Of a stretch of 64,000 nt of DNA, positions 31,756 to 47,572 are shown piece after piece. The translations under genes and the position numbers were made by a program. Origin of the DNA: a virus (lineage: Duplodnaviria > Caudoviricetes); the IMG/VR virus record IMGVR_UViG_3300022848_000005; one strand, 5' to 3'. The stretch's first letter is position 1, and each line of letters begins with the position of its first letter. The notes under the pieces were generated by a model, which had not been told where the DNA came from, did no database searches, and was given only the letters and a program-made list of their open reading frames with translations.

Positions 31756-32077
31756 AATTAATATTATATCGGCACCAGACAGACTGGACAGAGACAGTAA
31801 AAAGTTTTTGTTGTTTGATATAAACATGGACGAGCTCATGGGAGTTAAGGAAACCTTTACTAACTTCGATATGAATATTGATTTTTATATATACGGAAGT
31901 TATAGCGATGATGTAAAATGGCTAAGTAAAGTTGCTGAGATTGTGGACTACACTATAGTAAACAATACACAGTTAACAGAACATATAGATTTAAAAACAG
32001 AGTTACTTAAGAGTAAAAAAGCAATCTCAACAGACAGCCAAACCGTTTTAGAACTAATTTTAGAAAGATGCCAATGA
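31745..32077 (+). CDS. Hypothetical protein
   Basis: 110-aa ORF in the operon. Confidence 0.55.
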   Translation: MVSEINIISAPDRLDRDSKKFLLFDINMDELMGVKETFTNFDMNIDFYIYGSYSDDVKWLSKVAEIVDYTIVNNTQLTEHIDLKTELLKSKKAISTDSQTVLELILERCQ

Positions 32078-33297
32078 ACACCAAGGATAAGCCAGAAGTA
32101 GTATGTAATTTCTGCGGCAAAAATAAAAGTGAAGTAGAAACGTTAATAATAAGCAATGATGTTGGTATTTGTGATGAATGTACAGAATTATGTACTAATA
32201 TCTTAGCGAAAGAAAAACAAGATAAAATCATACCAGAATTAAAGATCGCTGAGACCCTAGACCCTGTGGGAATAAAGAAACATTTAGACGAACACATTAT
32301 TGGGCAGGATGAGGCAAAAACAGCTATTGCTGTAGCCGTGGTCAATCATTATAAAAGAGTGTTTAACAATACCAACATCAAGTTGGATAAGAGTAATTTA
32401 TTATTGTTTGGTCCTACGGGAACAGGCAAAACATTATTAGCTAAGACTATCGCAGAATACCTCAAGGTGCCATTTGTTATTACTGATGCAACTAGTTTAA
32501 CCGAAGCTGGTTACGTGGGCGAAGATGTAGAGAACGTTATAGAGCGTTTATTAGCAGAAGCAGGATTCGATCCCAGGAAATGTGAACAGGGTATTGTGTT
32601 TATTGATGAGATAGATAAAATTGCACGTAAAGGCGAATCAAGTACTACTAGCAAGGACGTCTCAGGAGAGGGCGTTCAACAAGCACTTTTAAAGCTCGTT
32701 GAGGGCACCAAATGCAAAATATCAGTAAAAGCAAGCAAGAAAATGGTCGTTAGTGAGAGTGTAGACATAGACACAAGTAATATACTCTTTATCGCTGGTG
32801 GTGCATTTGTGGACTTAGAGAAAATTATCGAAAAACGTATCAATGCCACTGCTATTGGTTTTGGCAGCAAACTTAAAAGTAAAGGAACAGATAGAAGTCA
32901 GATTATACACGAGGACTTTGTTAAGTTTGGTATGATACCAGAATTTACGGGCAGATTTCCTGTTATAGTGCATACAAATGACTTGACACTAGACGACTAT
33001 GTTGCTATACTTAAAGAGCCTAAACACAATTTATTAGCACAAATGAAATTTTACTTTGGTGTTGATAACATTAAATTAAACTTTGATAGTGGTTCATTAA
33101 GAGCCATTGCCGAAGAAGCAGTAAAATTAAAAGTAGGTGCTCGAGGACTTAAGGCTGTGTTAGAACGAATATTACAGCCTTATATGTTTGACATGGCCGA
33201 AATTAAAAAGAATCACATTAAGAGTATTACTATTACCGAAAAAGTTATTAAGGACAACAAAAAAGCAAACTTTAAATATGAAATACCAAAAAAATAA
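32068..33297 (+). CDS. clpX: ATP-dependent Clp protease ATPase subunit ClpX
   Basis: Zinc finger CNFC/CDEC, GPTGTGKT, GYVGED, DEID, DVSGEGVQQ, IGF loop. Confidence 0.93.
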   Translation: MPMNTKDKPEVVCNFCGKNKSEVETLIISNDVGICDECTELCTNILAKEKQDKIIPELKIAETLDPVGIKKHLDEHIIGQDEAKTAIAVAVVNHYKRVFNNTNIKLDKSNLLLFGPTGTGKTLLAKTIAEYLKVPFVITDATSLTEAGYVGEDVENVIERLLAEAGFDPRKCEQGIVFIDEIDKIARKGESSTTSKDVSGEGVQQALLKLVEGTKCKISVKASKKMVVSESVDIDTSNILFIAGGAFVDLEKIIEKRINATAIGFGSKLKSKGTDRSQIIHEDFVKFGMIPEFTGRFPVIVHTNDLTLDDYVAILKEPKHNLLAQMKFYFGVDNIKLNFDSGSLRAIAEEAVKLKVGARGLKAVLERILQPYMFDMAEIKKNHIKSITITEKVIKDNKKANFKYEIPKK

Positions 33298-33529
33298 TCA
33301 ATTTGATGCACACCTATCAGGCACATCAGTGTTCGTTAAAGATGGTAATGTGGAAACAGCATTACGCAAACTAAAGAAAAAAGTGCAAGAAAGCGGAAAA
33401 TTACAACAGGTGCAGGATAAAACTGAGTATATTAAACCAACAACTCTCCGCAAACGAAAAGCCGCCCAAGCACGTAAACGTTGGCTTAAACAACTTGCTT
33501 TGGAAAAATTACCCGAAAAGAAATATTGA
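33278..33529 (+). CDS. rpsU: 30S ribosomal protein S21 homolog
   Basis: VKDGNVETALRKLKKKV...EYIKPTTLRKRK; start moved to ATG 33278. Confidence 0.85.
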   Translation: MKYQKNNQFDAHLSGTSVFVKDGNVETALRKLKKKVQESGKLQQVQDKTEYIKPTTLRKRKAAQARKRWLKQLALEKLPEKKY

Positions 33530-33554
33530 CTTATACAGAAAGACCCTGTATAAA
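33526..33554 (+). promoter_or_regulatory. sigma70-type promoter upstream of the small HSP gene
   Basis: TTGACT(33526)-17 bp-TATAAT(33549). Confidence 0.7.
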
Positions 33555-33618
33555 TAAATGTGTACAAAGGATGAACCGGAGTACATTTACCGGCACGCCG
33601 AAAGGGTGCTACAATTAA

Positions 33619-33639
33619 TCTTGCTTAATATTAAGGAGA
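33619..33639 (+). promoter_or_regulatory. ROSE-like RNA thermometer hairpin
   Basis: UCUUGCUUAA-UA-UUAAGGAGA: the UUGCU motif pairs with the SD AGGAG, leaving a bulged G. Confidence 0.65.
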
Positions 33640-33644
33640 AAACA

Positions 33645-34097
33645 ATGACAAGACTAACAACTCTAGACCTACCACACTTCCACAGAGCCACTATTGGCTT
33701 TGATAGACTGTTTAACGAAATGGAAAGACAATTTGCAAATAGTCCAAATGGAAATGGTTACCCCCCATACAACATAGCACAAATTAACGAAGATGAGTAT
33801 ATGATTTCGTTAGCAGTTGCTGGCTTTGGTATGGAGAATCTTGAGGTTACTACAGATGGTGATCAACTAAAGATTGAAGGAACTGCTCCTAAAGGAGACG
33901 AAGATGTCAACTACCTACACAAAGGTATTGGCGGCCGCAACTTCCGCAGAGAGTTCACACTCGCTGACCATGTTAAGGTAGCAAACGCTACACTTGAGTT
34001 GGGTATGTTGAATGTGCATTTAGTGCGTGAAGTACCAGACGCATTAAAACCTAAAACAATCAAGATCACTGATTCAACAGTAACCGACAGCAAATAA
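33645..34097 (+). CDS. ibpA: Small heat-shock protein (Hsp20/IbpA family)
   Basis: IGFDRLF, YPPYNI, LAVAGF, YLHKGI, LGMLNVHL, KPKTIKI; SD-supported start 33645. Confidence 0.9.
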   Translation: MTRLTTLDLPHFHRATIGFDRLFNEMERQFANSPNGNGYPPYNIAQINEDEYMISLAVAGFGMENLEVTTDGDQLKIEGTAPKGDEDVNYLHKGIGGRNFRREFTLADHVKVANATLELGMLNVHLVREVPDALKPKTIKITDSTVTDSK

Positions 34098-34105
34098 ACA
34101 GTCTA

Positions 34106-34127
34106 GGGGGAGTGAAATATCTCCCCC
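34106..34127 (+). terminator. GC hairpin after the small HSP gene
   Basis: gggggag-tgaaatat-ctccccc; no clear U-tract. Confidence 0.45.
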
Positions 34128-34142
34128 ACATATAGAAAGACA

Positions 34143-34451
34143 GTGATGCCAGACATAAAAGAAGTAGATTCAAAACCAGCAGTAAATGAGAAGGTTAAAG
34201 AACCGTCAATGTTTAATGTTATCTATCTAAATGATAACGAAACCACTGTAGAATTTGTAATTACCACTTTAATCTCAATATTTTCTTACGACCCAACTGA
34301 TGCTACCGATATAACACAAAAAATACACGAGTATGGCAGTGCAATTGTAGCAACTTATCCATACGAAATTGCAGAACAAAAAGGCGTGGAAGTAACACTA
34401 CTTGCACGTAATCATAATTTTCCGTTACAAGTAAAACTAGAAGCAGATTAA
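34143..34451 (+). CDS. clpS: N-degron adaptor ClpS
   Basis: NVIYLNDNETTVEFV, IHEYGSAIVATYPYEIAEQK, FPLQV. Confidence 0.9.
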   Translation: MMPDIKEVDSKPAVNEKVKEPSMFNVIYLNDNETTVEFVITTLISIFSYDPTDATDITQKIHEYGSAIVATYPYEIAEQKGVEVTLLARNHNFPLQVKLEAD

Positions 34452-34452
34452 T

Positions 34453-34980
34453 ATGGATGTAATGATAGATATCGAAACTCTGGCAACTCAGCCCGACGCA
34501 GTTATACTCACAATAGGTGCGTTGAAGTTTGATCCCAAATCAAACGCTGAAGGTAACACCATTTACCATAGGCTAGATGTAGATTCTCAAATTAAAATGG
34601 GACGTCGTGTCGACGAAGACACTTGTGCTTGGTGGGGCAAACAAACACTGGCAGTTAGAGAAGAAGCTTTGGGAACGAGTAACAGAGATCCACTCGATGT
34701 GGTATTTGACAGCATATCAAGATTTATGGTTGGCGTAGATAATATATGGGCACAAGGCCCGGTATTTGATATTGCATTAATGGAGAACCTATTGCGTCAA
34801 GTTAAAAGACCTTGTCCATGGCACTACTGGCAAATTAGAGATTCTAGAACATTATTCAAATTACTCAACGAAGATCCAAGACCCAAAAATTTTGAAGGTG
34901 CGCATAATGCACTAACTGACTGTTACTATCAGGCCAAGGCAGTTCAAAAAGTTTTTAGACAACTAGGCCTTAATCGTTAA
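34453..34980 (+). CDS. DEDDh 3'-5' exonuclease
   Basis: MIDIETL, FDIALM, RDSRTL, HNALTD. Confidence 0.85.
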   Translation: MDVMIDIETLATQPDAVILTIGALKFDPKSNAEGNTIYHRLDVDSQIKMGRRVDEDTCAWWGKQTLAVREEALGTSNRDPLDVVFDSISRFMVGVDNIWAQGPVFDIALMENLLRQVKRPCPWHYWQIRDSRTLFKLLNEDPRPKNFEGAHNALTDCYYQAKAVQKVFRQLGLNR

Positions 34981-35008: not shown

Positions 35009-35602
35009 ATGACTAAGTCGCAAAAGAAAGTTGGATTTGCACTGTTAATCGCATTTTTTATATCAGCGTTAATGTTTATTGGCTGGTTAATTACTACGTC
35101 AGTGTTGGCACAAGAGTACACAGAAGATAACCCTCTTCAATTAGAAGATGGGACGGAACTAACAGGTGACATATTAGATATTACCCCACACCCTACCAGT
35201 AGATACGGCCAACTGGAGAACGACACCAAAGGCTGGCGACAAGTGGGTCATGTAGATAATAGACGATTGTATCTTAACATAGATAAAATTGAGAAAGTCA
35301 CAATATATAGACACGTTTGGGTAATGTTTGAATTTACAGATGGTCCAAAAGTAATACCAGGATACGCCGTGGGTGTTATCAAAGTAGTTAGTGAAGCAAC
35401 TATTGAGTGCTCAAGTGGGCTAGTGCAACCTTTGCGAGATTATTATGTTGACAAAGACTGGGTTATCAGAACACAAACAATTTATGAAACTGGACAAGCA
35501 AGGAGTTTTGCTAAAGCCAAAGGCAGTATTGCATGGGCAATGAAAGCGGTGGCATGTCATGGTGCTTCAATAGAAGATGTACAGATAGGAAAAGGCGCAT
35601 GA
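35009..35602 (+). CDS. Membrane-anchored exported protein
   Basis: N-terminal TM helix; beta-rich domain with two Cys. Confidence 0.55.
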   Translation: MTKSQKKVGFALLIAFFISALMFIGWLITTSVLAQEYTEDNPLQLEDGTELTGDILDITPHPTSRYGQLENDTKGWRQVGHVDNRRLYLNIDKIEKVTIYRHVWVMFEFTDGPKVIPGYAVGVIKVVSEATIECSSGLVQPLRDYYVDKDWVIRTQTIYETGQARSFAKAKGSIAWAMKAVACHGASIEDVQIGKGA

Positions 35603-35934
35603 ATGTAGTTTTTACTAAGGAATCGGCAGACAAGTTAGCGGAAACTTACACAGTATTACCGTTACCCCCAATCACACAAACAGAGGGAGAAAAAACTGTC
35701 ACAGTGGAACCTCACGTTATTATAGACATGGATAAAGTACCATTGCAAGAAATATCAAGTCTAGAAGAATGGTGTGGTCTACACAGAGAGGTGGTTAAGA
35801 ACCATATTAAACAGGATTATAGTTTTTGTGAACAAGCCATAAGTCATCTGATGGGGAAATTTAAAGGCGAACTAGACAGTTATTATAAACACATACTAAC
35901 AGAGGCGGGGAATTCATCTGATGATGTATATTGA
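35599..35934 (+). CDS. Stand-alone protein resembling the adenylate cyclase C-terminal tail
   Basis: KFKGELDSYY aligns with AFSGELEQYY of 45542-47572; start 35599. Confidence 0.5.
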   Translation: MNVVFTKESADKLAETYTVLPLPPITQTEGEKTVTVEPHVIIDMDKVPLQEISSLEEWCGLHREVVKNHIKQDYSFCEQAISHLMGKFKGELDSYYKHILTEAGNSSDDVY

Positions 35935-37175: not shown

Positions 37176-37832
37176 ATGAGATATACCAGATATAAATTTC
37201 CATACCTTGACAATATAATCGATCCTGATGTTGACTTAGACAGTTTACACATTGTTTGGTCTGAGAAATATAAATCTAGGTTTGTGGTTGATTCAAAAAA
37301 CCGTGCAAACCTGCCAGCCGAATACGCCTATAAAATACTTAGTGCAGACTTTTTGTCTTTTATACATAATGAGTTACCTTGGCAAATAAGTCATTTAGAG
37401 ATATATCCCTTACCACCCAACACAAATTGTGTTATTGTACAAGAGGTCGTCGAAGAAAACAGAAATAATATAGGGTTGTATATGACAACAGGTGGCGTGT
37501 CATGGAATATACATGACATAACTGGTTTTAGACGTCGACAGGTTAGTAGGCCAGACTATACAACAGAAGCATGGCCCACATTTTGTGCCTTTTCTAAACC
37601 AGTAACAGATGCTGAGCCATCTGACAAGTGGCTTGATAGTAGCGAAATGCCAATTTTAGAGACATATAAAAATTGTGGTTTTATAGGGAACGGTTCTGTT
37701 CCGCATTCGTTGCGCTCAGACAACTCAGAAAAATCTGTATTTTTTATAATATCGTTTGAGATTGCTTTTGATAATAATATACCATTGCTGTATAAACAAC
37801 TTGGTGATGTATTTAAAAAGTGGGCTATTTAA
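37176..37832 (+). CDS. Hypothetical protein
   Basis: 218-aa ORF; no clear motif. Confidence 0.55.
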   Translation: MRYTRYKFPYLDNIIDPDVDLDSLHIVWSEKYKSRFVVDSKNRANLPAEYAYKILSADFLSFIHNELPWQISHLEIYPLPPNTNCVIVQEVVEENRNNIGLYMTTGGVSWNIHDITGFRRRQVSRPDYTTEAWPTFCAFSKPVTDAEPSDKWLDSSEMPILETYKNCGFIGNGSVPHSLRSDNSEKSVFFIISFEIAFDNNIPLLYKQLGDVFKKWAI

Positions 37833-39018
37833 ATTTCCATCTTTCTCTAAACTGTTTCCCTGCATTACCTGGTAATGTGTTAACACTCCCCAGTTCACCA
37901 TCTATTACTTTTAAGTCAGGGTGTCTTGCATAATGCTGTTGCTTATTCTGTAACAGATTATCCGCTATTTCAAAGTTATCCAATAGCTCTTGCCAACATA
38001 TATCAAATAATGTATTATAAAAGTGATTAAAGTTATAATCTAAAATAGGCAACATTTCTAGATACATCCTACGTTTGTCTGTTGCTGACAAGTTACATAT
38101 ACTTTTTATCTGTTTAATTACCATATCTAATCTAATAGCGGGATCTGTTTCTGTATCGTAACTCTCATCAATAAATCCGTCAAATGTCTTAAAACCATAT
38201 GAACGTAAGTACTCTAAGTTGCCTGTACAGCCTAATAGCATAAACGGTTGTCTAGCAACGATAGGTTTAAATATTTTTTCGGTAAGATGATTTGTTTTTT
38301 CGTAAAAGCAGGTCTCACTGACTATATGCCAAAAACCACTTGTCCAGAGATCGTACTCTAGTTCAGCACTTGCATTGTCACGTAGGTAATTGGTCTTTTG
38401 TATCCTAAAAGTGGGACTACGCTCTGACATCTTTTTAATAAGTTTTTTATCTTGCTCTGAAATAAATGTGTTATTGTCATAGTCCTTAAGATTGTATGAA
38501 ACAACACCTTCCCCTAACAGCCCTTGATCATACAGTTTTGCCACAAACAACGATCTATAAATTCTTGATTCAGAGCACAGGTTATTTAAACTTATATAAC
38601 TTGCTCCTTGACTGACATCGACCCTGGGGGAAAATTTTGCACTTCTAAACCAGTCAAGACTAGCAAATGCATGATAAAAATAATACCATTTAATTAAGTT
38701 ATTCTTGTTACAAAATGCATCTAACAAGGGATTATTAACCTCGCTAGTTGCCCATATATTATACTTTAAATCCCACCTGCCATCTTGTAGTTTACGCACG
38801 ACGTCATACATACTTTGCGGTATCTGCGTACTAATCCCAAAAGGTTCTTGGTCATAAAAATACACATCTTCAAGTTGAAACAGTGAAGAATCTGGATACT
38901 TTAGCATGTCGTTATTTGATTCACACGTATCAAAGCTCTTTAAAGCATGCCCTTGTAAATGCTTATTTGATAACAAGTTGGCGTATAGGATGTCATAATG
39001 GTGGTCAATATTAAACAT
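37825..39018 (-). CDS. Glycan-related protein (glycosyltransferase-like), paralog of 44413-45534
   Basis: IVSET...LTEKIFKPI..RQPF...L..LRSYGFKTF...DESYD. Confidence 0.55.
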   Translation of the reverse strand: MFNIDHHYDILYANLLSNKHLQGHALKSFDTCESNNDMLKYPDSSLFQLEDVYFYDQEPFGISTQIPQSMYDVVRKLQDGRWDLKYNIWATSEVNNPLLDAFCNKNNLIKWYYFYHAFASLDWFRSAKFSPRVDVSQGASYISLNNLCSESRIYRSLFVAKLYDQGLLGEGVVSYNLKDYDNNTFISEQDKKLIKKMSERSPTFRIQKTNYLRDNASAELEYDLWTSGFWHIVSETCFYEKTNHLTEKIFKPIVARQPFMLLGCTGNLEYLRSYGFKTFDGFIDESYDTETDPAIRLDMVIKQIKSICNLSATDKRRMYLEMLPILDYNFNHFYNTLFDICWQELLDNFEIADNLLQNKQQHYARHPDLKVIDGELGSVNTLPGNAGKQFRERWKFK

Positions 39019-39066: not shown

Positions 39067-39528
39067 TTGAGGATAAAAGTGAAGTACCTATTAATGTTTT
39101 TATTTATGGCCTCAGTGGCATCTGCAGACAATTTAACGTTTAATTATAAGAGCCCTGCGTTTACAGGAAACGGGTATAGTGCGCATGTGCTAACTATTGA
39201 ACAGTTAGAGTCTAATAGAAGAACTGAAAACGATAAAAAAGCAAAGGCTTCGTCTGATGAATCAGAGCGAGATTTGCGAGCCACAAATACCTGGAAGTTT
39301 CAGAATAACCTGGAATCTAGGATCTACAGTCAGCTCAGTAAGCAAATTAGTGATAGCCTTTTTGGTGAGGCGGCGGCGGCAGCTGATGCTGAAGGAATAG
39401 TAACAACACCGTTTGGTGACACAGTAGCATGGTCTCGTATTGATGGTGTTATATCTGTAACAGTGTCTGACAGTAATGGGTCGATATTATCCACATTTTC
39501 TGTACCTGTAGGAGACTTTTCTTTCTAA
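39067..39528 (+). CDS. csgF: Curli assembly protein CsgF-like
   Basis: Signal peptide, LTFNYKSPAFTGNGY..H.L..EQ, FQNNLESRIYSQLSKQI. Confidence 0.75.
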   Translation: MRIKVKYLLMFLFMASVASADNLTFNYKSPAFTGNGYSAHVLTIEQLESNRRTENDKKAKASSDESERDLRATNTWKFQNNLESRIYSQLSKQISDSLFGEAAAAADAEGIVTTPFGDTVAWSRIDGVISVTVSDSNGSILSTFSVPVGDFSF

Positions 39529-39529
39529 T

Positions 39530-40420
39530 ATGAAAATCTTGATGATGTTAATGGCAACACTGTTAGTTTCAGGATGTGCAACTGTCGCTGGTAAAACATC
39601 CTTTGAAGCACCTACAATTGTACAGAGCCAAGACGAAATGTTTTATAATATCCCGCCTCCTGCACAAGGACCTATATACATTGCTGTTTATTCGTTTGAA
39701 GACAAAACAGGTCAACGTAAACCCAGTGAGCGTTTTTCAAACATATCTACAGCAGTAACACAGGGGTCGGTTGAATGGGTAATTAAAAGTCTTAAAGAAG
39801 TAGGCAACGGTGAGTGGTTTAAGGTTATTGAGCGTGTTGGCTTAGACAACCTAACTAAAGAGAGACAGATTATTAGGCAACAAAGACAAGCAGTTGACGA
39901 TCAAAGTACACTTAAGCCATTAAAATATGCAGGAATTTTACTGGAAGGTGCTATAGTAGGGTACGATAGTAATATAAAAACAGGCGGTAGTGGTGCAAGA
40001 TATTTAGGAATAGGATTACACCAGGAGTATAGGGAGGATGTAGTAACAGTTGCGATGCGAGTTATTTCTACTCAGACTGGTGAGGTATTAGTGGCAGTTA
40101 CTGCTAGTAAGACTATTATAAGTTATGGCACTAGTCTATCAGCATTTAGATTTATTGATATGGGAACACGTGCCGTAGAGATAGAAGCTGGTAACTACAC
40201 AAACGAGCCTACCACAGTTGCAGTTCAACGAGTTATTGACGCCGCAGTAATAGAAATGATTATGCAAGGCAAAGCAAATGGGTACTGGGACTTTAAAAAC
40301 TCAGAGGTCACTGTATCATCTGACAGAATAGAAAATGTGTCAAAACAGCTGTCAGAGGTCGAAATGTTACAAGAAGAGTATGAAAAACAGCTAAAACTAA
40401 TAGAAAAGAACCCACTTTGA
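39530..40420 (+). CDS. csgG: Curli secretion pore CsgG
   Basis: Lipobox LVSGC, AVYSFEDKTGQRKP, STAVTQG, WFKVIER.GL.NL..ERQII. Confidence 0.92.
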   Translation: MKILMMLMATLLVSGCATVAGKTSFEAPTIVQSQDEMFYNIPPPAQGPIYIAVYSFEDKTGQRKPSERFSNISTAVTQGSVEWVIKSLKEVGNGEWFKVIERVGLDNLTKERQIIRQQRQAVDDQSTLKPLKYAGILLEGAIVGYDSNIKTGGSGARYLGIGLHQEYREDVVTVAMRVISTQTGEVLVAVTASKTIISYGTSLSAFRFIDMGTRAVEIEAGNYTNEPTTVAVQRVIDAAVIEMIMQGKANGYWDFKNSEVTVSSDRIENVSKQLSEVEMLQEEYEKQLKLIEKNPL

Positions 40421-40526
40421 AATAGTGCTATGTATTTATTTGTGCAGTATTATTTAAATAGCAATAAGTGTTATATCATCACTATGATCTGATATGTGTG
40501 GCTACATGGCCAAGGGAAGAGGAAAA

Positions 40527-41168
40527 ATGAAAATTTTAAGAACTATTGTAGGTGCAATATTACTGATAACTTGTGGCACGGTTTTTGCGAATGACGTGTA
40601 TATTGATCAGGCAGGTGATAGTTCAACAATCACAGTTATACAACAGAACGGGACTAACACAGTAAACTCGTCGGGAGATGCCGCAACACTCAGTGGTGAT
40701 AGTATTACATTAAGTATTACCCAAGACGGTAATTTGAATAATGCAGACATTGAATTAGAAAATAGCGCAACTTCATCAAATGTTGATATTGATGTTCTGG
40801 GTAGCAGTAACGAAACTAACGTTAGTGTTGACGGTGCATCCAGTACAACTGTTGATATTGACATTACGGGTGATACAAACTGGGCAACAGTTTGTGGATC
40901 TAACGACAGTGCATCAGGGGTTGCAATGACTTGTACAGGCGGTATTACTGACAGTACAACTTCAAATACTATTTCGATAACAGGTGATACCAACGCTGTT
41001 AACATTGAAGCAACAGGTGCAAGTCAAACTAACACAGTAACTATTGGAGCAGATTCGTTAGACCTAAGCGATGCTAATACTGTTGACATCTTAAATGATG
41101 TTACAGGTTCAAATGTTATTCTTAACATCGACGGGCAAGACAACGATGTTGACATCACAGTTCAGTAG
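40527..41168 (+). CDS. Secreted curlin-repeat-like protein
   Basis: Signal peptide (VFA-N); repeated I.Q.G..N and I.I.G..N units. Confidence 0.6.
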   Translation: MKILRTIVGAILLITCGTVFANDVYIDQAGDSSTITVIQQNGTNTVNSSGDAATLSGDSITLSITQDGNLNNADIELENSATSSNVDIDVLGSSNETNVSVDGASSTTVDIDITGDTNWATVCGSNDSASGVAMTCTGGITDSTTSNTISITGDTNAVNIEATGASQTNTVTIGADSLDLSDANTVDILNDVTGSNVILNIDGQDNDVDITVQ

Positions 41169-42243
41169 GACTCTATTTGCTGTAACATTTCTTATATCCT
41201 CTACAGTATTTGCAAAAGGTATAGGGAATGTTACAGAACAAACTGGGCCTGCGGAGATAAGCAGAGCAAAATCAAAACTACCTAGCGAAAAAGGTGCTGA
41301 CATCTTTATGCAAGATGTTATACAGACAGCAAAGTCAAAAGTAGGCATAACTTTTGCAGATAACACCAAAATCCGCATTATCGAACAAAGTAAATTAATA
41401 GTAGATGAATTTATCTACGATCCAGGGAGTGAAACGCCAGGTAAACTAGGCATGAAAGTAGTGTTAGGCACAGTACGCTACGCATCTGGTAAAATAGCAA
41501 AAGACAATGCTGAGAATGTTAACATTCAAACACCAACTGCTACTATTGCTGTTCGAGGAACAGACTTCACAATGACTGTAGACGAGATAGGACGTAGTCT
41601 TGTTATTCTACTACCTAGTTGCCCAACTGACAATGAAGTAGACTGTTATGTGGGGGAGATTGAAGTTCTAACAGACGTGGGTGCTGTTATTATGAATCAG
41701 GCATTTCAGGCTACATTGGTAACTAGCAGTGATTCAATGCCTACTGAACCAACAATTGTTAACATTACAGAAGCATTGATTGACAATTTTCTTATTATTA
41801 GTCCACCAGAAGAAGTTAGGATAGCTCAAGAAGAGCAAGAGCGCAGTAAAGATCCACTAGACAAAGACTTATTAAAATTTGATGATTTAGACACTAACCA
41901 GTTAGACGAAGAAGATGAACTAGCAAATAATTACGAACTTGACATAAATTACTTAGATTTTGATTTCTTAGGCAATATGCTGGACTTGACCACAGTGGAC
42001 TTAAACAGAGACCAATTGGAAACAAACGAGACGCTACCAACAATACAACAGTACAGTTGGATATTATGGTATGCAAACGAAGAAGAGATTTTTATGAGAA
42101 GTGAGAGACCACCTCATGTTGCTGAGATAAGTCTGGAACGAGTTATGGAAGGCAACGTAAATATTACACAGGATGACGTCCCAGCTCAAATACAAGTTCA
42201 AGGTGGTTCAGGAACAGAAATAACTATTATACAGAGTCAATAA
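41146..42243 (+). CDS. FecR-domain exported protein
   Basis: Signal peptide; ITFADNTKIRI.EQSKLIVDEF, GTVRYASG, QTPTATIAVRGTDF; likely start 41146. Confidence 0.8.
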   Translation: MLTSQFSRTLFAVTFLISSTVFAKGIGNVTEQTGPAEISRAKSKLPSEKGADIFMQDVIQTAKSKVGITFADNTKIRIIEQSKLIVDEFIYDPGSETPGKLGMKVVLGTVRYASGKIAKDNAENVNIQTPTATIAVRGTDFTMTVDEIGRSLVILLPSCPTDNEVDCYVGEIEVLTDVGAVIMNQAFQATLVTSSDSMPTEPTIVNITEALIDNFLIISPPEEVRIAQEEQERSKDPLDKDLLKFDDLDTNQLDEEDELANNYELDINYLDFDFLGNMLDLTTVDLNRDQLETNETLPTIQQYSWILWYANEEEIFMRSERPPHVAEISLERVMEGNVNITQDDVPAQIQVQGGSGTEITIIQSQ

Positions 42244-43469
42244 TGTTTAAAAGACTTGTCTTAATACTCTTTAGTTGGTTAATATTTGTTGCTACTCCTA
42301 CATGGGCAGATTTAGATTATACCTCATATTACATAACCTCATATGCACCCAGTCTTGAATTTCCATACTACGATAACGTAGCAGGCTATAATAGTGATGG
42401 ATCGAACTCAAGTCCATCTTATCTAAGCAGTGTACTCAGCACAGGAACGATGTCAGGCATAAGTGGGTATAATTGGGGTAGTGTATTAGACAGTGGTCGT
42501 TCAGATTATGTAGCATTAGAAATAACAGGATACATCACATGGCCAGGCACAGCAGGTGTATCAACAACTGTGTACTTTGGTGTAAGAGCAGATGATGGCG
42601 TGTTTATGAACATAGATGGCACTAACGTAATCCAGGACTGGCAACAACAAGGTGGTGCCACTTGGAATGCTCAAGGTTCTATTACACTTACGGGCGGGCA
42701 AGAATATCCAATTACAGTTTGGTGGTACGAGTGGGGAGGCGGTGCAGAACTTGATATCAATTACAGTTTAACTGATTATCAGTATTCTAATCAAGCAAAC
42801 ATACCCACAAGTTGGCTCAGTACAACTTCTACATCGAGTAGTTCTTCAGCAACGCCATCATATTCTTCTGGGCCAACTTCTGCACAACAAACTAGAATAA
42901 ACTCTAATAGATCAGCTATAAGTTCAGGCTCTAGTAACGATATAGATATTAATATAACAGGTGATAGCAATGATATTTTTATTTCGCAGGCAGGTGAACC
43001 AAGTCTTTTGTTGCTAAATGTTACAGGAAACCTTAACGACATCGACATAGATCAAGATGCTAGTACGTCAGCAACCAGCTATGGGCATTATACAGAAGCT
43101 GAAATTTTAGGCGACAGTAATATACTAGACTTAACTCAAACAGGCAGTGGGAACCATACAGCATTTATTGATGTTAACGGAGATAGTAACTCAGCAACAC
43201 TGATTCAGAAAGATGGGGGCAACCATTATCTACAATTGGATTTAATTGGTGACAACAATACTGCTACAATAACACAGCAAGGTGCTGGTGACCATGCGGC
43301 TACTGTTGAACTAACAGAGAGCGGTGGTAGTTGGACATTTAGTCTAGATCAGAACGGCACCAACGATAAAACATATAGTTTACCACATAGTATGAGTGAT
43401 GAATCAACAACAAGCGGAACATGCTATACCAGTGCAGGATGCTCATTGACTGTAACACAAGGCGACTAA
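42243..43469 (+). CDS. Secreted PA14-domain plus curlin-repeat protein
   Basis: Signal peptide; PA14-like RADDGV and YPITVWWYEWGGGA; S/T linker; C-terminal Q.G..N repeats. Confidence 0.7.
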   Translation: MFKRLVLILFSWLIFVATPTWADLDYTSYYITSYAPSLEFPYYDNVAGYNSDGSNSSPSYLSSVLSTGTMSGISGYNWGSVLDSGRSDYVALEITGYITWPGTAGVSTTVYFGVRADDGVFMNIDGTNVIQDWQQQGGATWNAQGSITLTGGQEYPITVWWYEWGGGAELDINYSLTDYQYSNQANIPTSWLSTTSTSSSSSATPSYSSGPTSAQQTRINSNRSAISSGSSNDIDINITGDSNDIFISQAGEPSLLLLNVTGNLNDIDIDQDASTSATSYGHYTEAEILGDSNILDLTQTGSGNHTAFIDVNGDSNSATLIQKDGGNHYLQLDLIGDNNTATITQQGAGDHAATVELTESGGSWTFSLDQNGTNDKTYSLPHSMSDESTTSGTCYTSAGCSLTVTQGD

Positions 43470-43631
43470 ACGTCTTGACTACACGGATCTAGTGTGTTAT
43501 AGTAATGCATGTCTAAAAGTTTTACAAACATTGGAGCAATAAATAGTTGCAACCGGCCTTTTCTGGCATTCAACCCGGTATACAAATTCTGCAAGTCTAT
43601 GTTATAATTACTTTTAATATAGGACATAATA

Positions 43632-44132
43632 ATGAACGAACCAAGACAATACAAGTACGTGAGCACAAAAGAATACGTTGATCAGTTTCCGTGTGCATAT
43701 AGACAATGGAGAGCTGACAGTCACTGCAACGTAATACACGGTTATGCGTTTACAATGCGTTTCTTTTTTGGAACAGACGACCTAGATGTTAGAAACTGGG
43801 TTGCCGATTACGGCGGATTAACGGAACTAAAGCAAATATTACAGGATCAGTTTGACCATACGCTACTGGTTGCTGAAGACGACCCAGAAATAGAAATGTA
43901 CAAGCAACTGCAAGCAAAGAAGTTGGCTAAACTAACTATCTTACCAAAACTTGGTTGCGAAGGCCTTGCAGACCAACTGTACAAATATGTAAATGGTGTG
44001 TATATCCCAGACATGTGGGGGCAAAGCGAAGCAGATAGACTTTGGTGTTACAGAGTAGAAGTACGTGAAACACAAAGCAACATGGCTTGGCGTGAGGGAC
44101 ACAGAGAATGGAACGAGGACTTGTATGAGTAA
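43632..44132 (+). CDS. queD: 6-pyruvoyl tetrahydropterin synthase / QueD
   Basis: SHCNVIHGY, QFDHT, GCEGLA, RVEVRET. Confidence 0.85.
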   Translation: MNEPRQYKYVSTKEYVDQFPCAYRQWRADSHCNVIHGYAFTMRFFFGTDDLDVRNWVADYGGLTELKQILQDQFDHTLLVAEDDPEIEMYKQLQAKKLAKLTILPKLGCEGLADQLYKYVNGVYIPDMWGQSEADRLWCYRVEVRETQSNMAWREGHREWNEDLYE

Positions 44133-44281
44133 TGCAATCACCTTGTCAGAAAATTTGTGTTATGGAAAATGGCTATTGTTTGGGCTGTAATCGTACACAA
44201 GAAGAAATAGCCAACTGGATTAGCTATACAGATGCACAACGTGACAGCATAGTACAACAACTAGAAGACAGAGAAGTATGA
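44132..44281 (+). CDS. DUF1289-like small Cys protein
   Basis: 49 aa, not in the ORF track; SPCQKIC...YCLGCNRTQEEIANW. Confidence 0.7.
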   Translation: MQSPCQKICVMENGYCLGCNRTQEEIANWISYTDAQRDSIVQQLEDREV

Positions 44282-44416
44282 ATCATTTTATTAGTGGATA
44301 TGGATTCGATGAAATTGGACGACAGACAGTTTCATGTATAAGGAGGTGACACCATATTGATTCCGGATGGTGCGTTTCATCGAGTCCATAACACTAGTGA
44401 CGATGGTGTTCTTTGA
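44278..44416 (+). pseudogene. Cupin remnant, 5'-truncated and frameshifted
   Basis: HFISGYG, then in another frame MKLDDRQFHV*GGDTILIPDGAFHRVHN (cupin motif 2). Confidence 0.65.
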
Positions 44417-45534
44417 AAATATCTGAACACAAAATATTTAATTTTGTTACCCCAACCAGTGCAATAAATGTTGCTAGTGACTGGTTAGGCCACGATCACG
44501 TAAACTGGCAGTTTACTGATGATTACACAGAAGCACTAGCACAACCGTGTAAGATTGCTATGATGCCTGCATTGTTTAATTGTCCAGGCAGTTATACGTA
44601 TAGAGAGAAGTTTAAAAAATACGACTTTAGCAAGTTTGATCTGGTGGTGTTAAGTGATATAGAATGTCATAGCCAAGACTATATTATAGAAGAATGCATT
44701 CAACCTGCTGGAATTAAAAACTATCTGGTTGCGGCTGGTGGGGTTACAACTGAACTAACAGACCCCGACTTTATATACAGACCTTGGTGGATGTTTCACC
44801 ATCGTAACCTAAACTCTATTCAAGTGAGTAGTTATAATAAGCGTGAGTTTCTGTTTGATGCGTTATTGGGATCCCGTAAATTGCATCGTAGTTATGTAAT
44901 GGCACGTTTACAACAGCGTCCAGATTTACTCTCAAACTCTATTGTAAACTATAGAGACACGTTTATTAATCATTGGGGAGACAACCCTAAGTACTTGTAC
45001 GATCATGTACGAAAAACACTAGATGGCAAAGAGTTGCTGTGGCCTTACGTAAGCAAAAACTTTACAGAAGAACAACCACAAGATTTAGAACCACATCAAA
45101 TAAGTGAAGTCACACCCTGGGACATATACGAAAAGACACACTACAGTATATGTTGTGAAAGTTTTGGCAACAACCCAGATGACACAAATCCTGGACCTTT
45201 CTTCCTGACAGAGAAGACTGCTAAGATGTTTATGGCGCAACGTATGTTTATAATGTTTGCACCACAGCATACGTTACGATTCATAAAAAGTCTAGGATTT
45301 GAAACTTTTGACTCGGTTATAGATGAAAGTTATGACGACATAGCAGATCCTAGAAAAAGATTTGATAGAGCATTTGACCAAGTTGAATATCTAGCTAAAC
45401 AAGATCCTGCAGGAGTCTACGAAAAAGTTATGTTTATAACACAATATAACTTTTTTATGTTTATGGACCTTATTAAAAAGACCAAAGAAGCCATGCTTAA
45501 CAAGTTGCTACAAAAAATAGATAACATAGAGTAA
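44413..45534 (+). CDS. Glycan-related protein (glycosyltransferase-like), paralog of 37825-39018
   Basis: YSICCES...FLTEKTAK...QRMF...GFETF..VIDESYD. Confidence 0.55.
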   Translation: MKISEHKIFNFVTPTSAINVASDWLGHDHVNWQFTDDYTEALAQPCKIAMMPALFNCPGSYTYREKFKKYDFSKFDLVVLSDIECHSQDYIIEECIQPAGIKNYLVAAGGVTTELTDPDFIYRPWWMFHHRNLNSIQVSSYNKREFLFDALLGSRKLHRSYVMARLQQRPDLLSNSIVNYRDTFINHWGDNPKYLYDHVRKTLDGKELLWPYVSKNFTEEQPQDLEPHQISEVTPWDIYEKTHYSICCESFGNNPDDTNPGPFFLTEKTAKMFMAQRMFIMFAPQHTLRFIKSLGFETFDSVIDESYDDIADPRKRFDRAFDQVEYLAKQDPAGVYEKVMFITQYNFFMFMDLIKKTKEAMLNKLLQKIDNIE

Positions 45535-45541
45535 ATACGTT

Positions 45542-47572
45542 ATGTTCAAAAAAATATTGCTGAGTCCCTGGACAGCAATAATCACATTATTAATATGCGC
45601 ATATATTAAAATGTCGGATCCAGGATTTGTGGAAAGTGTTAGGCTACGTTACTTCGATACTCTAATTACAAGCCAAGAACCAGTACAAAATAACATACAC
45701 ACTGTTAATATAGACGACCTTGCACTAACCGAAATAGGCGCATGGCCCGTGCCCAGAGACTATTATGCAGACTTAATTGTAGACCTATATAACAGGAATG
45801 CAGGGCTGGTTGTGTTAAATGTTCTCATGCCAGAAGCATCAGATCAGGACCTAGCACTAGCAGAGGCAATGGAGTCTTATCCTGTCATACTAACAAGTGT
45901 ACCTAGCCAATGGAGCAAAAACACACCTAAGAAACCAGGTGCAGTGATTTTAAATCCAGAGTACATGAACACAATTATCAACTATCCTGGCATAATAGCA
46001 AACACTGAAGAGCTAGAACAACGTGCATACGGTGTTGGTATTGCTAACACATTACCAGAGATAGATGGTGTTACTAGACGCATTCCATTAGTTGCCGCAG
46101 TGGGCGAAAACTTATACCCAGGCGTACCGTTAGAGATATTAAGATCAGCCGCAGGAGACACAACCTTTCAGATCAAACTGTTTGAATACGGTGTTGAGAA
46201 AATGCGTATACCAGCCTTTGGTACTATAACTACTGATGCACTGGGACGTATCTGGATAGACTGGAGCCAACAAAGTTATAAACATAGTCTAACTAATCTG
46301 CCAGAAGATTTTGGTGGAGGCGTAGTTATTATTGGCCCAACAGCGGCAGGTACTAACCAGCCTGTAGCAACAGCATTAGGTGGCAGTTGGCCACATGAAG
46401 TACAAGCCGCAGTAGTAGGTACAATGTTCAATGGTGTAAACATTGTACGTGCTGATTGGGCAGACGGTGCAGAACTACTGGCAATTGTAGTATTAGGCTT
46501 GCTTGCTATTTTTATATCAAGTTGGACATATGGCTTTGTGCCTGTAATAGCGGTTGTTGTAGGCATTTATTATGCGGCTCAATACTATTACACAGAACAA
46601 CGACTATTGTTTGACATAACAGCAATTATATTTGCCTTGGTGTTAACTTATGTGCATGCATATACAGTTAAGTTCTTAAGCGAATTTTATCAGAAGCAAC
46701 AGATTAAGAAACAGTTTGGAACTTACATCAGTAAAGAGCTGGTAGCAGAATTACAGAAGCATCCTGAGAAGATGCAGTTAGGTGGTGTTACCAGAGTCAT
46801 GACATTCTTGTTTTGTGATATCAGAGGATTTACCCCTATTAGTGAACAGTATAAAACAGATCCACAAGGTCTAACACGACTTATTAATAAGTTCTTAACT
46901 CCCATGACTAACATAATTATGGAGCATAGGGGAACCATAGATAAGTATATGGGAGACTGTATTATGGCGTTCTGGAATGCGCCACTGGAGATAGAAGGTC
47001 ATGAACAAAAAGCAGTACTGGCGGCGCAAGACATGGTTGATGGAGTTAGGCGACTTAATGAAGAACTATCCAAAGATAATCTACTACCTATTAATATTGG
47101 TATTGGTATTAACACTGGTGCCTGCGTCGTGGGTAATATGGGTTCTGATCAAAGGTTTGATTACAGTGTACTCGGTGATGCTGTCAATCTTGGAAGCAGG
47201 CTTGAAGGCCAATCCAAATCGTACGGAGTCATCACAATCATTGGTGAAGAAACAGCAAAGTCGGTAACCGACACACAATTAATCGAACTAGACTTAATTG
47301 CTGTTAAAGGCAAAGAAGATCCAGTAACAATATACACTCCTGTAACTTCATCATTTGATGTCGAGATAAAGAAACATCAGGAGTATCTCGACGCATATAG
47401 AAACAGAGACTGGAACGAAGCTAAGAGGATTGCTGGCGGTAATAAGTTGGCCTTTTCAGGAGAACTTGAACAGTATTATGTGTTAATGAGCGAGCGTATT
47501 ACGGAACTTGAAAAGTCTGACATTAACGACTTAGAGATCTGGGACGGAATTTTTAGAGCGCAAACTAAGTAG
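45542..47572 (+). CDS. CHASE2-domain class III adenylate cyclase
   Basis: N-terminal TM, CHASE2 (IDGVTRRIPL), three TM, FCDIRGFT, IDKYMGDCIMAFW, GNMGS..RFDYSVLGDAVNLGSRLEG. Confidence 0.92.
   Translation: MFKKILLSPWTAIITLLICAYIKMSDPGFVESVRLRYFDTLITSQEPVQNNIHTVNIDDLALTEIGAWPVPRDYYADLIVDLYNRNAGLVVLNVLMPEASDQDLALAEAMESYPVILTSVPSQWSKNTPKKPGAVILNPEYMNTIINYPGIIANTEELEQRAYGVGIANTLPEIDGVTRRIPLVAAVGENLYPGVPLEILRSAAGDTTFQIKLFEYGVEKMRIPAFGTITTDALGRIWIDWSQQSYKHSLTNLPEDFGGGVVIIGPTAAGTNQPVATALGGSWPHEVQAAVVGTMFNGVNIVRADWADGAELLAIVVLGLLAIFISSWTYGFVPVIAVVVGIYYAAQYYYTEQRLLFDITAIIFALVLTYVHAYTVKFLSEFYQKQQIKKQFGTYISKELVAELQKHPEKMQLGGVTRVMTFLFCDIRGFTPISEQYKTDPQGLTRLINKFLTPMTNIIMEHRGTIDKYMGDCIMAFWNAPLEIEGHEQKAVLAAQDMVDGVRRLNEELSKDNLLPINIGIGINTGACVVGNMGSDQRFDYSVLGDAVNLGSRLEGQSKSYGVITIIGEETAKSVTDTQLIELDLIAVKGKEDPVTIYTPVTSSFDVEIKKHQEYLDAYRNRDWNEAKRIAGGNKLAFSGELEQYYVLMSERITELEKSDINDLEIWDGIFRAQTK

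Follow-up and report, generated by a model that had tools for sequence, protein, structure and literature searches.

A jumbo-phage copy of the marine-phage curli cassette with a candidate FecR–CHASE2 envelope sensor

Phage curli cassettes and the jumbo-phage copy

Genes of the curli, or type VIII, secretion system (T8SS) have been described in phages (Zaragoza-Solas et al. 2020, PMC7029224) and a role as a pore or in lysis timing has been proposed for them (Buchholz et al. 2022, PMC9004378). A further study (mSystems 2022, PMC9599517) treats the T8SS genes, FecR, a histidine kinase and an adenylate cyclase as a co-selected module of podo- and myophages, observed in metatranscriptomes and at every one of the 65 GOV2.0 stations, amounting to ~0.1% of assembled viral proteins; the module was described without functional experiments and CsgE is absent there too. 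According to the phage curli papers known hosts, e.g. Pelagibacter, have no T8SS. Curli genes have also been reported, in one paper, from a T4-like genome whose predicted host belongs to the Flavobacteriaceae. Here, we analysed a 64,000-nt stretch of viral DNA (IMG/VR record IMGVR_UViG_3300022848_000005, hereafter the window) whose plus strand carries, at 39067-47572, a cassette of csgF, csgG, a curlin-repeat gene, a FecR-fold gene, a PA14-curlin gene and a CHASE2 receptor adenylate cyclase gene, as assigned by a Pfam profile search of its open reading frames (ORFs). The cassette is already published: it is the 'curli' (type VIII secretion) cassette of marine phages, of which the window has a jumbo-phage version. 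A first-pass annotation of the window had known of no functional description of these parts as one system, a statement to be corrected given that PMC9599517 already presents T8SS, FecR and adenylate cyclase as a co-selected and transcribed phage module. What is added here is the jumbo lineage, a FecR protein that is not an iron anti-sigma factor, the separate bacterial contexts of CsgG and of FecR/cyclase, and the linkage of FecR to CHASE2. As a whole, the explanation we favour, in our judgement an even call, is that of a phage curli exporter combined with a FecR/CHASE2 envelope sensor, a chimera of two bacterial modules.

The pelagiphage T8SS module (HTVC008M, Melnitz and HTVC023P-type podophages) resembles that of the window in its genes, their order and the absence of CsgE. 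In contrast, the window lies on a jumbo phage and has a three-gene insertion before the cyclase, and no upstream histidine kinase as podophages have was found in its cassette or flanking ORFs. The pelagiphage papers take FecR as an iron regulator and are silent on the bacterial type I secretion context; CHASE2 is unmentioned in PMC7029224, PMC9004378 and PMC9599517, and so are PA14 and lectin in the last of these. With the CsgBAC/CsgDEFG system of E. coli the cassette shares the CsgG lipoprotein channel, CsgF and secreted curlin-repeat substrates, whereas it has no CsgE, CsgC, CsgD or recognisable CsgB, one of its substrates bears a folded PA14 head, and FecR and the cyclase are added.

In HTVC008M and Melnitz the genes csgF-csgG-curlin-FecR-curlin-cyclase are contiguous and their products are 35-47% identical to the window proteins, but a megablast search against phage records left the cassette unmatched, relatives being found at the protein level only. 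In almost all of 80 IMG/VR loci the genes run csgF-csgG-curlin-FecR-(second curlin)-cyclase, and the cyclase is absent from just one locus among those with enough flank. The window follows the published order of the phage T8SS-FecR-cyclase module as well.

The window belongs to a jumbo-phage lineage of ~290–350 kb. Indeed, its helicase has its nearest relatives in PA5oct-type and Atu_ph07 jumbo phages and is 66-67% identical to the helicases of complete 338-kb and 349-kb IMG/VR genomes, both cassette-bearing, but only 27-28% identical to the helicases of 161-168 kb T4-like genomes. Moreover, an identical FecR protein occurs on contigs up to 289 kb. The phage nature of the window is visible in its neighbouring genes for ribonucleotide reductase, replicative helicase, tail-spike-like proteins, ClpX, S21, HSP20 and ClpS. 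No paper that puts the module in jumbo phages was found in our literature search, and its presence in this third phage lineage strengthens the case for selection as a unit. From 32068-34980 onward, gene calls on identical contigs show a cluster of a ClpX-like ATPase, ribosomal protein S21, HSP20, ClpS and an Rv2179c-like exoribonuclease.

Association of FecR-fold proteins with CHASE2 sensors

The linkage between FecR and CHASE2 was measured at 40 CHASE2 genes on large contigs from 301 Pseudomonadota genomes and, for control, at 40 regions of these contigs lying 80 kb off, by searching for FecR-like ORFs within 10 kb with a FecR-domain hidden Markov model built from phage and bacterial sequences. 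Such an ORF was present at 26/40 CHASE2 loci and 0/40 controls (Fisher p=6e-11), which bears out the claim of the first-pass annotation that CHASE2 cyclases often neighbour FecR-domain genes in bacteria. In the phage the FecR gene lies upstream of the cyclase gene and on its strand, and by inspection of the coordinates 17 of the 26 linked ORFs are placed likewise. The linked CHASE2 proteins have a cyclase (17) or a histidine kinase (7) as output, and the unlinked ones a cyclase (9), a kinase (2) or a Ser/Thr kinase (1). Hence, since both cyclase and kinase outputs are linked, it is the sensor domain that the association follows, in agreement with the Burkholderia 'BiofilmReg' operon (PMC5192318), which is tied to a biofilm phenotype and has genes for a response regulator, a LysM-FecR protein, a CHASE2 histidine kinase and DUF4136. 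A periplasmic FecR-domain protein is co-transcribed with a CHASE2 sensor there, but the output is a kinase and response regulator and not cyclic AMP (cAMP), LysM is present on FecR and there is no secretion system. We consider a FecR–CHASE2 envelope sensor pair, also widespread in bacteria, to be well supported.

The bacterial neighbourhoods also separate the two halves of the cassette. No CsgF, CsgG or curlin was found within 10 kb of the 80 nearest bacterial cyclases, which are full-length homologues with 32-37% identity, mostly from Alphaproteobacteria, and neither FecR nor a CHASE2 cyclase was found near the 7 best CsgG loci of 401 alphaproteobacterial genomes. Among the 46 cyclase loci with full flanks a FecR-domain gene is present in 21, ABC and HlyD genes (type I secretion) in 17 and either in 30. 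FecR domains are scarce in the cyclase-bearing genomes, with 1-22 copies each, and a 1.4-Mb marine single-cell genome of 31% G+C content has its sole FecR copy near the cyclase. Furthermore, a 977-aa FecR-RTX protein from a marine single-cell genome, also of 31% G+C content, has an N-terminal domain that shares 31% identity with the FecR domain of the phage (E=1e-22). The co-occurrence of cyclase, csg and FecR genes, for which a gene-neighbourhood check had been proposed, is therefore seen in the 80 viral loci and, for FecR and CHASE2, in bacteria, but csg genes do not stand beside bacterial cyclases. By gene content the cassette appears to be a chimera of an alphaproteobacterial-type curli locus and a FecR-exoprotein/CHASE2-receptor pair.

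At the nearest-cyclase loci, 15 of 26 FecR ORFs are at least 900 aa long with RTX/cadherin domains. One such ORF (L008:5308-9861) and 14 similar ones (L011-L080), of 900-2,100 aa, start with a FecR domain at the N-terminus, continue into cadherin-like, Big_9 and RTX repeats and adjoin CHASE2 cyclases; no paper on such giant proteins beside CHASE2 cyclases was found in the literature. In marine Alphaproteobacteria, a cyclic-nucleotide (cNMP)-binding domain is fused or adjacent to an HlyD-type membrane-fusion protein beside CHASE2 cyclases (L009:8243-9958, plus strand; also L065, L067, L070 and L082), which hints at cAMP gating type I secretion.

In the FecR protein of the window a signal peptide precedes a FecR/PupR-like beta domain (~27-200) in which two Cys residues form a conserved pair; an acidic linker, with 25 D/E in 85 residues, then leads to a C-terminal beta domain. 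The AlphaFold2 model of the protein has a predicted local distance difference test (pLDDT) score of 84. The N-terminal beta domain matches the PupR signalling domain (CCSSD) 6OVK (Foldseek E=3e-4, prob 1.0) and many AFDB 'FecR domain-containing' clusters of 200-1,250 aa. The model of the C-terminal domain, with six strands and a pLDDT of 87, has no recognisable PDB relative. A reading of the C-terminus (…NITQDDVPAQIQVQGGSGTEITIIQSQ) as a curlin repeat docking onto the fibre was rejected for now, as it has no Pfam match, hhalign gives E=0.015 with a probability of 3%, and no curlin or beta-solenoid was matched, the best Z of 3.6 being to Ig-like sandwiches.

With FecR/PupR anti-sigma factors the protein shares the periplasmic fold and the Pfam family. 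However, neither an anti-sigma domain nor an internal hydrophobic segment or transmembrane (TM) helix is seen in the AlphaFold2 model and hydropathy profile, the N-terminal signal peptide looks cleavable, and no extracytoplasmic function (ECF) sigma factor or TonB-dependent transducer is present in the cassette or flanking ORFs. The protein is not an iron-citrate anti-sigma regulator and, with both the anti-sigma domain and the TM helix lacking, the label 'iron regulator' is unjustified. A complex prediction of CHASE2 (25-312) with the FecR protein (24-365) scored 0.02 and is counted neither for nor against binding.

By its sequence the phage supplies a CsgG/CsgF outer-membrane channel, two Sec-exported curlin-repeat substrates, one of them PA14-headed, a soluble and exported FecR-fold protein and a CHASE2 receptor cyclase with its full set of catalytic residues. 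According to the explanation we favour, the infected cell would extrude curli-like, adhesin-tipped fibres. In the periplasm the FecR-fold protein would be an accessory partner of the CHASE2 domain and would form with the cyclase an envelope sensor setting cAMP output during infection, the candidate inputs being fibre export, the envelope state or an outside cue. That FecR relays the state of the fibre to the cyclase, as the first-pass annotation had put forward, we infer. No cNMP-binding domain was detected in seven cassette-bearing phage genomes, the window itself not having been scanned exhaustively, so any cAMP must act via the host; as the phages encode no such domain, host proteins would be the readers of cAMP. 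The phage would thus retain the logic 'secreted repeat adhesin + FecR domain + CHASE2 cyclase' and exchange the secretion machine. Such cassettes are carried by very abundant ocean phages and would give their hosts a surface organelle that the known hosts lack.

Several observations weigh against this explanation. Fibre formation is only putative in a system with no CsgE and no clear CsgB/CsgA distinction, and Melnitz infections proceed without clumping (PMC9004378). In addition, the cyclase may form a separate transcription unit, given the sigma70-like sites in the gap ahead of the inserted block and its position in several phages on the opposite strand or behind up to 5 kb of unrelated genes. 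Finally, in the one experimental precedent, the cyaD1 cluster of S. meliloti, the cAMP/Clr cascade has the FecR-domain gene smc02177 among its targets, and signals are perceived without this gene (PMC5498481). That cluster, clr-cyaD1-smc02177-smc02178, resembles the phage pair in having an alphaproteobacterial CHASE2 receptor adenylate cyclase, which turns constitutive once CHASE2 is removed, beside a non-cytoplasmic FecR-domain protein. It differs in its Crp-like regulator Clr, of which the phage has none, in its FecR gene being an output, and in having no secretion channel or curlin.

The S. meliloti case could mean that the arrow runs in reverse, with the CHASE2 cyclase alone sensing an outside cue and cAMP controlling the production or export of the FecR protein and the fibre, both as effectors. 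Indeed, smc02177 is induced by Clr/cAMP and needed for the phenotype though not for perception, and the HlyD-cNMP-binding fusions beside bacterial cyclases of this family (five loci) suggest that cAMP gates secretion. We nevertheless judge such an arrangement unlikely, since FecR genes are equally linked to CHASE2 histidine kinases, which make no cAMP, the seven phage genomes have no detected cNMP-binding domain, and signal relay in the periplasm is a known role of the FecR/PupR fold.

If the FecR–CHASE2 sensor is real, the phage version offers a compact seven-gene start, free of host background, for finding out what CHASE2 detects. It is possible, though doubtful, that FecR-fold exoproteins are the cognate ligand-presenting co-sensors of CHASE2 generally and that the phage runs a 'secrete-and-sense' circuit reporting fibre export or surface contact as cAMP. 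Were the general co-sensor reading true, it would answer the question of the CHASE2 input, which concerns hundreds of bacterial cyclases and kinases, and were the circuit true, the infected cell would be reprogrammed (aggregation, superinfection exclusion, lysis timing).

The receptor cyclase and the block inserted before it

The cyclase is composed of TM1, a periplasmic CHASE2 domain, three TM helices, a class IIIb catalytic domain and a conserved C-terminal helical tail. The CHASE2 match (PF05226) spans residues 21-322, and hydrophobic segments at 4-24, 305-343 (with room for two helices) and 353-379 fit 1+3 TM helices. The closest solved structure is that of P. aeruginosa CyaB (3R5G, E=5.5e-34). 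The catalytic residues are the metal-binding D426 and D472, the substrate Lys K468, S542 and the transition-state residues N549 and R553; both metal-binding Asps and the N...R pair had been recognised before. Conservation was assessed in an alignment of 58 phage and bacterial cyclase homologues, where D426, K468 and D472 are invariant, R553 is found in 57/57 and N549 in 46, and the specificity position 542 is occupied by T (29), S (17) or D (11). In the window Ser542 stands 7 residues before the Asn and 11 before the Arg, with Asp540 two residues upstream. From the alignment the specificity pair of the window cyclase is read as Lys/Ser, a class IIIb pattern, and not as the Lys/Asp pair annotated earlier. 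The call of subclass IIIb follows from the alignment with CyaB (3R5G) and from general features of class IIIb.

Position 542 shows a coupled change, as all 11 homologues with Asp there have Ser replacing the transition-state Asn (Melnitz, L088, L091, L101, L103, L104, L110, L126, L140, L145 and L157). They fall into at least 4 separate clades of the cyclase tree, and the coupling may mark an alternative catalytic or regulatory state. In the same tree, which is unrooted, the viral cyclases all lie on one side of a 100%-support branch while the FecR-linked bacterial cyclases are scattered over the non-viral side; because there is no root, no donor is claimed. The stretch 35533-35934 was also considered as a separate copy of the cyclase tail, which is unsupported (BLASTP E=0.036 across 35 residues only).

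Three genes outside the system separate the cyclase from the PA14-curlin gene (Table 1). This block does not occur in HTVC008M or Melnitz, but in other phages the insertion at the pre-cyclase site varies from 0 to 5 kb, with strand flips now and then, and such variable insertions explain the PTPS/DUF1289/373-aa block of the window. The 373-aa protein and its 397-aa paralogue, of which the former is encoded inside the cassette and the latter flanks it, are 35% identical in their C-terminal parts with a common FIDESYD motif, and neither has a Pfam match. The gap between the PA14-curlin and PTPS genes (43475-43608) contains two near-consensus sigma70-like sites with an extended -10 TG (TTGACT-17-TATAGT and TATACA-18-TATAAT), possibly a dedicated promoter for the inserted block and the cyclase. 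Scans for sigma70 promoters and terminators gave no excess over shuffles and the T4 late motif TATAAATA is not enriched.

The insertions and strand flips between FecR and the cyclase, together with the candidate promoters in the gap and the frequent lack of the cyclase in podophage versions (PMC9599517), would also be expected of a cyclase independent of the curli genes, that is, of a cAMP-raising host-takeover enzyme that merely shares a hypervariable island with them. This we regard as quite improbable, given that a cyclase is present in nearly every long-enough viral locus and in three phage lineages, that the viral cyclases form one group on the 100%-support branch, and that FecR and CHASE2 co-occur in bacteria without curli genes.

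Secretion genes and their products

The same-strand run of csgF, csgG, curlin, FecR and PA14-curlin genes followed by a CHASE2-3TM cyclase gene, as first annotated, was recovered in full (Table 1).

Table 1. Genes of the cassette and of the inserted block, with window coordinates
Feature	Coordinates	Strand	Evidence and assignment
csgF	39079-39528	+	PF10614 E=1.4e-13, 51.5 bits vs cut-off 25.8; CsgF-like coupling/nucleation factor, predicted secreted
csgG	39530-40420	+	PF03783 E=1.1e-54; outer-membrane lipoprotein channel, type VIII (curli) secretion
First curlin-repeat protein	40527-41168	+	Sec signal, then degenerate xIxQxGxxN-type repeats; probable fibre subunit
FecR-fold protein	41146-42243	+	PF04773 E=3.6e-10; predicted secreted; ORF from 41095, likely start 41146
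PA14-curlin protein	42243-43469	+	PA14 2.6e-10 (40.7 bits vs cut-off 24) and Curlin_rpt 2.6e-11
Receptor adenylate cyclase	45542-47572	+	CHASE2 2.4e-32 and Guanylate_cyc 4e-18
Insertion, outside the system	43632-45534	+	three genes between PA14-curlin and cyclase
PTPS/QueD-like gene	43632-44132	+	PF01242 2.3e-13
DUF1289 gene, 49 aa	44132-44281	+	gene calls on identical contigs
373-aa protein	44413-45534	+	paralogue of flanking minus-strand gene 37825-39018 (BLASTP 5e-14)

At the sequence level the window holds CsgG, CsgF and secreted curlin-repeat substrates as parts of type VIII secretion, while CsgE has no match in the cassette or in 15 flanking ORFs, in line with the earlier reading that no csgE is recognisable. 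The csgF ORF opens with TTG at 39067 but its likelier start is the GTG at 39079, which has GAGGA ahead. The N-terminus of CsgF (MKYLLMFLFMASVASA followed by DNLTF) is signal-peptide-like by inspection and hydropathy, as are those of both curlins and of the FecR protein, and a phmmer comparison gave no direct match to solved CsgF. The alignment of CsgG with E. coli CsgG (3X2R/6L7A) spans the full length (E=4e-53). Its lipobox, LVSGC against LLSGC in E. coli, keeps the Cys and is intact as had been noted, and the constriction loop retains the Asn with Ile at the position of E. coli Phe56.

The ORF of the first curlin is open from 40494 (224 aa), and a start at 40527, with AAGAGGA ahead, is likelier. 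Its Curlin_rpt match (40494-41168) is under the Pfam threshold (E=0.85), but in a profile comparison its family hits the PA14 protein in the curlin region (hhalign 98%, E=3e-13) and the protein matches the Melnitz curlin-repeat protein (BLASTP 1e-11), which itself passes Pfam. The PA14-curlin protein has a PA14 head, a Ser/Thr-rich linker, curlin repeats and a C-terminal Cys-x5-Cys, and is a putative second, adhesin-tipped curlin with a head of sugar-binding type. Among 27 orthologues of this second curlin, Curlin_rpt is detected in 16, PA14 in 2 and F5/8 type C (discoidin) in 1, the heads being mostly without Pfam match; their variability suggests that binding targets change.

These proteins also bear on whether CsgG and CsgF could instead be an ungated pore, serving lysis timing (the pinholin/secretin idea, PMC9004378) or taking up nutrients or iron chelates (PMC7029224, PMC9599517), FecR then being a regulator in iron signalling. 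Such a pore would account for the lack of a CsgE gate, for the Melnitz cultures that do not clump (PMC9004378) and for a constriction loop altered from Phe56 to Ile. However, two conserved curlin-repeat proteins with signal peptides always accompany the pore, the FecR protein has no anti-sigma domain or TM helix and the cassette no ECF sigma factor or TonB-dependent transducer, and the relatives of FecR are fused to adhesin repeats and not to iron systems, all of which makes this alternative very improbable in our view.

Upstream of the cassette by 3.5 kb, a 197-aa protein (35009-35602, plus strand) has a Surface-adhesin protein E domain (PF16747, E=1.7e-5) and is another possible envelope protein.

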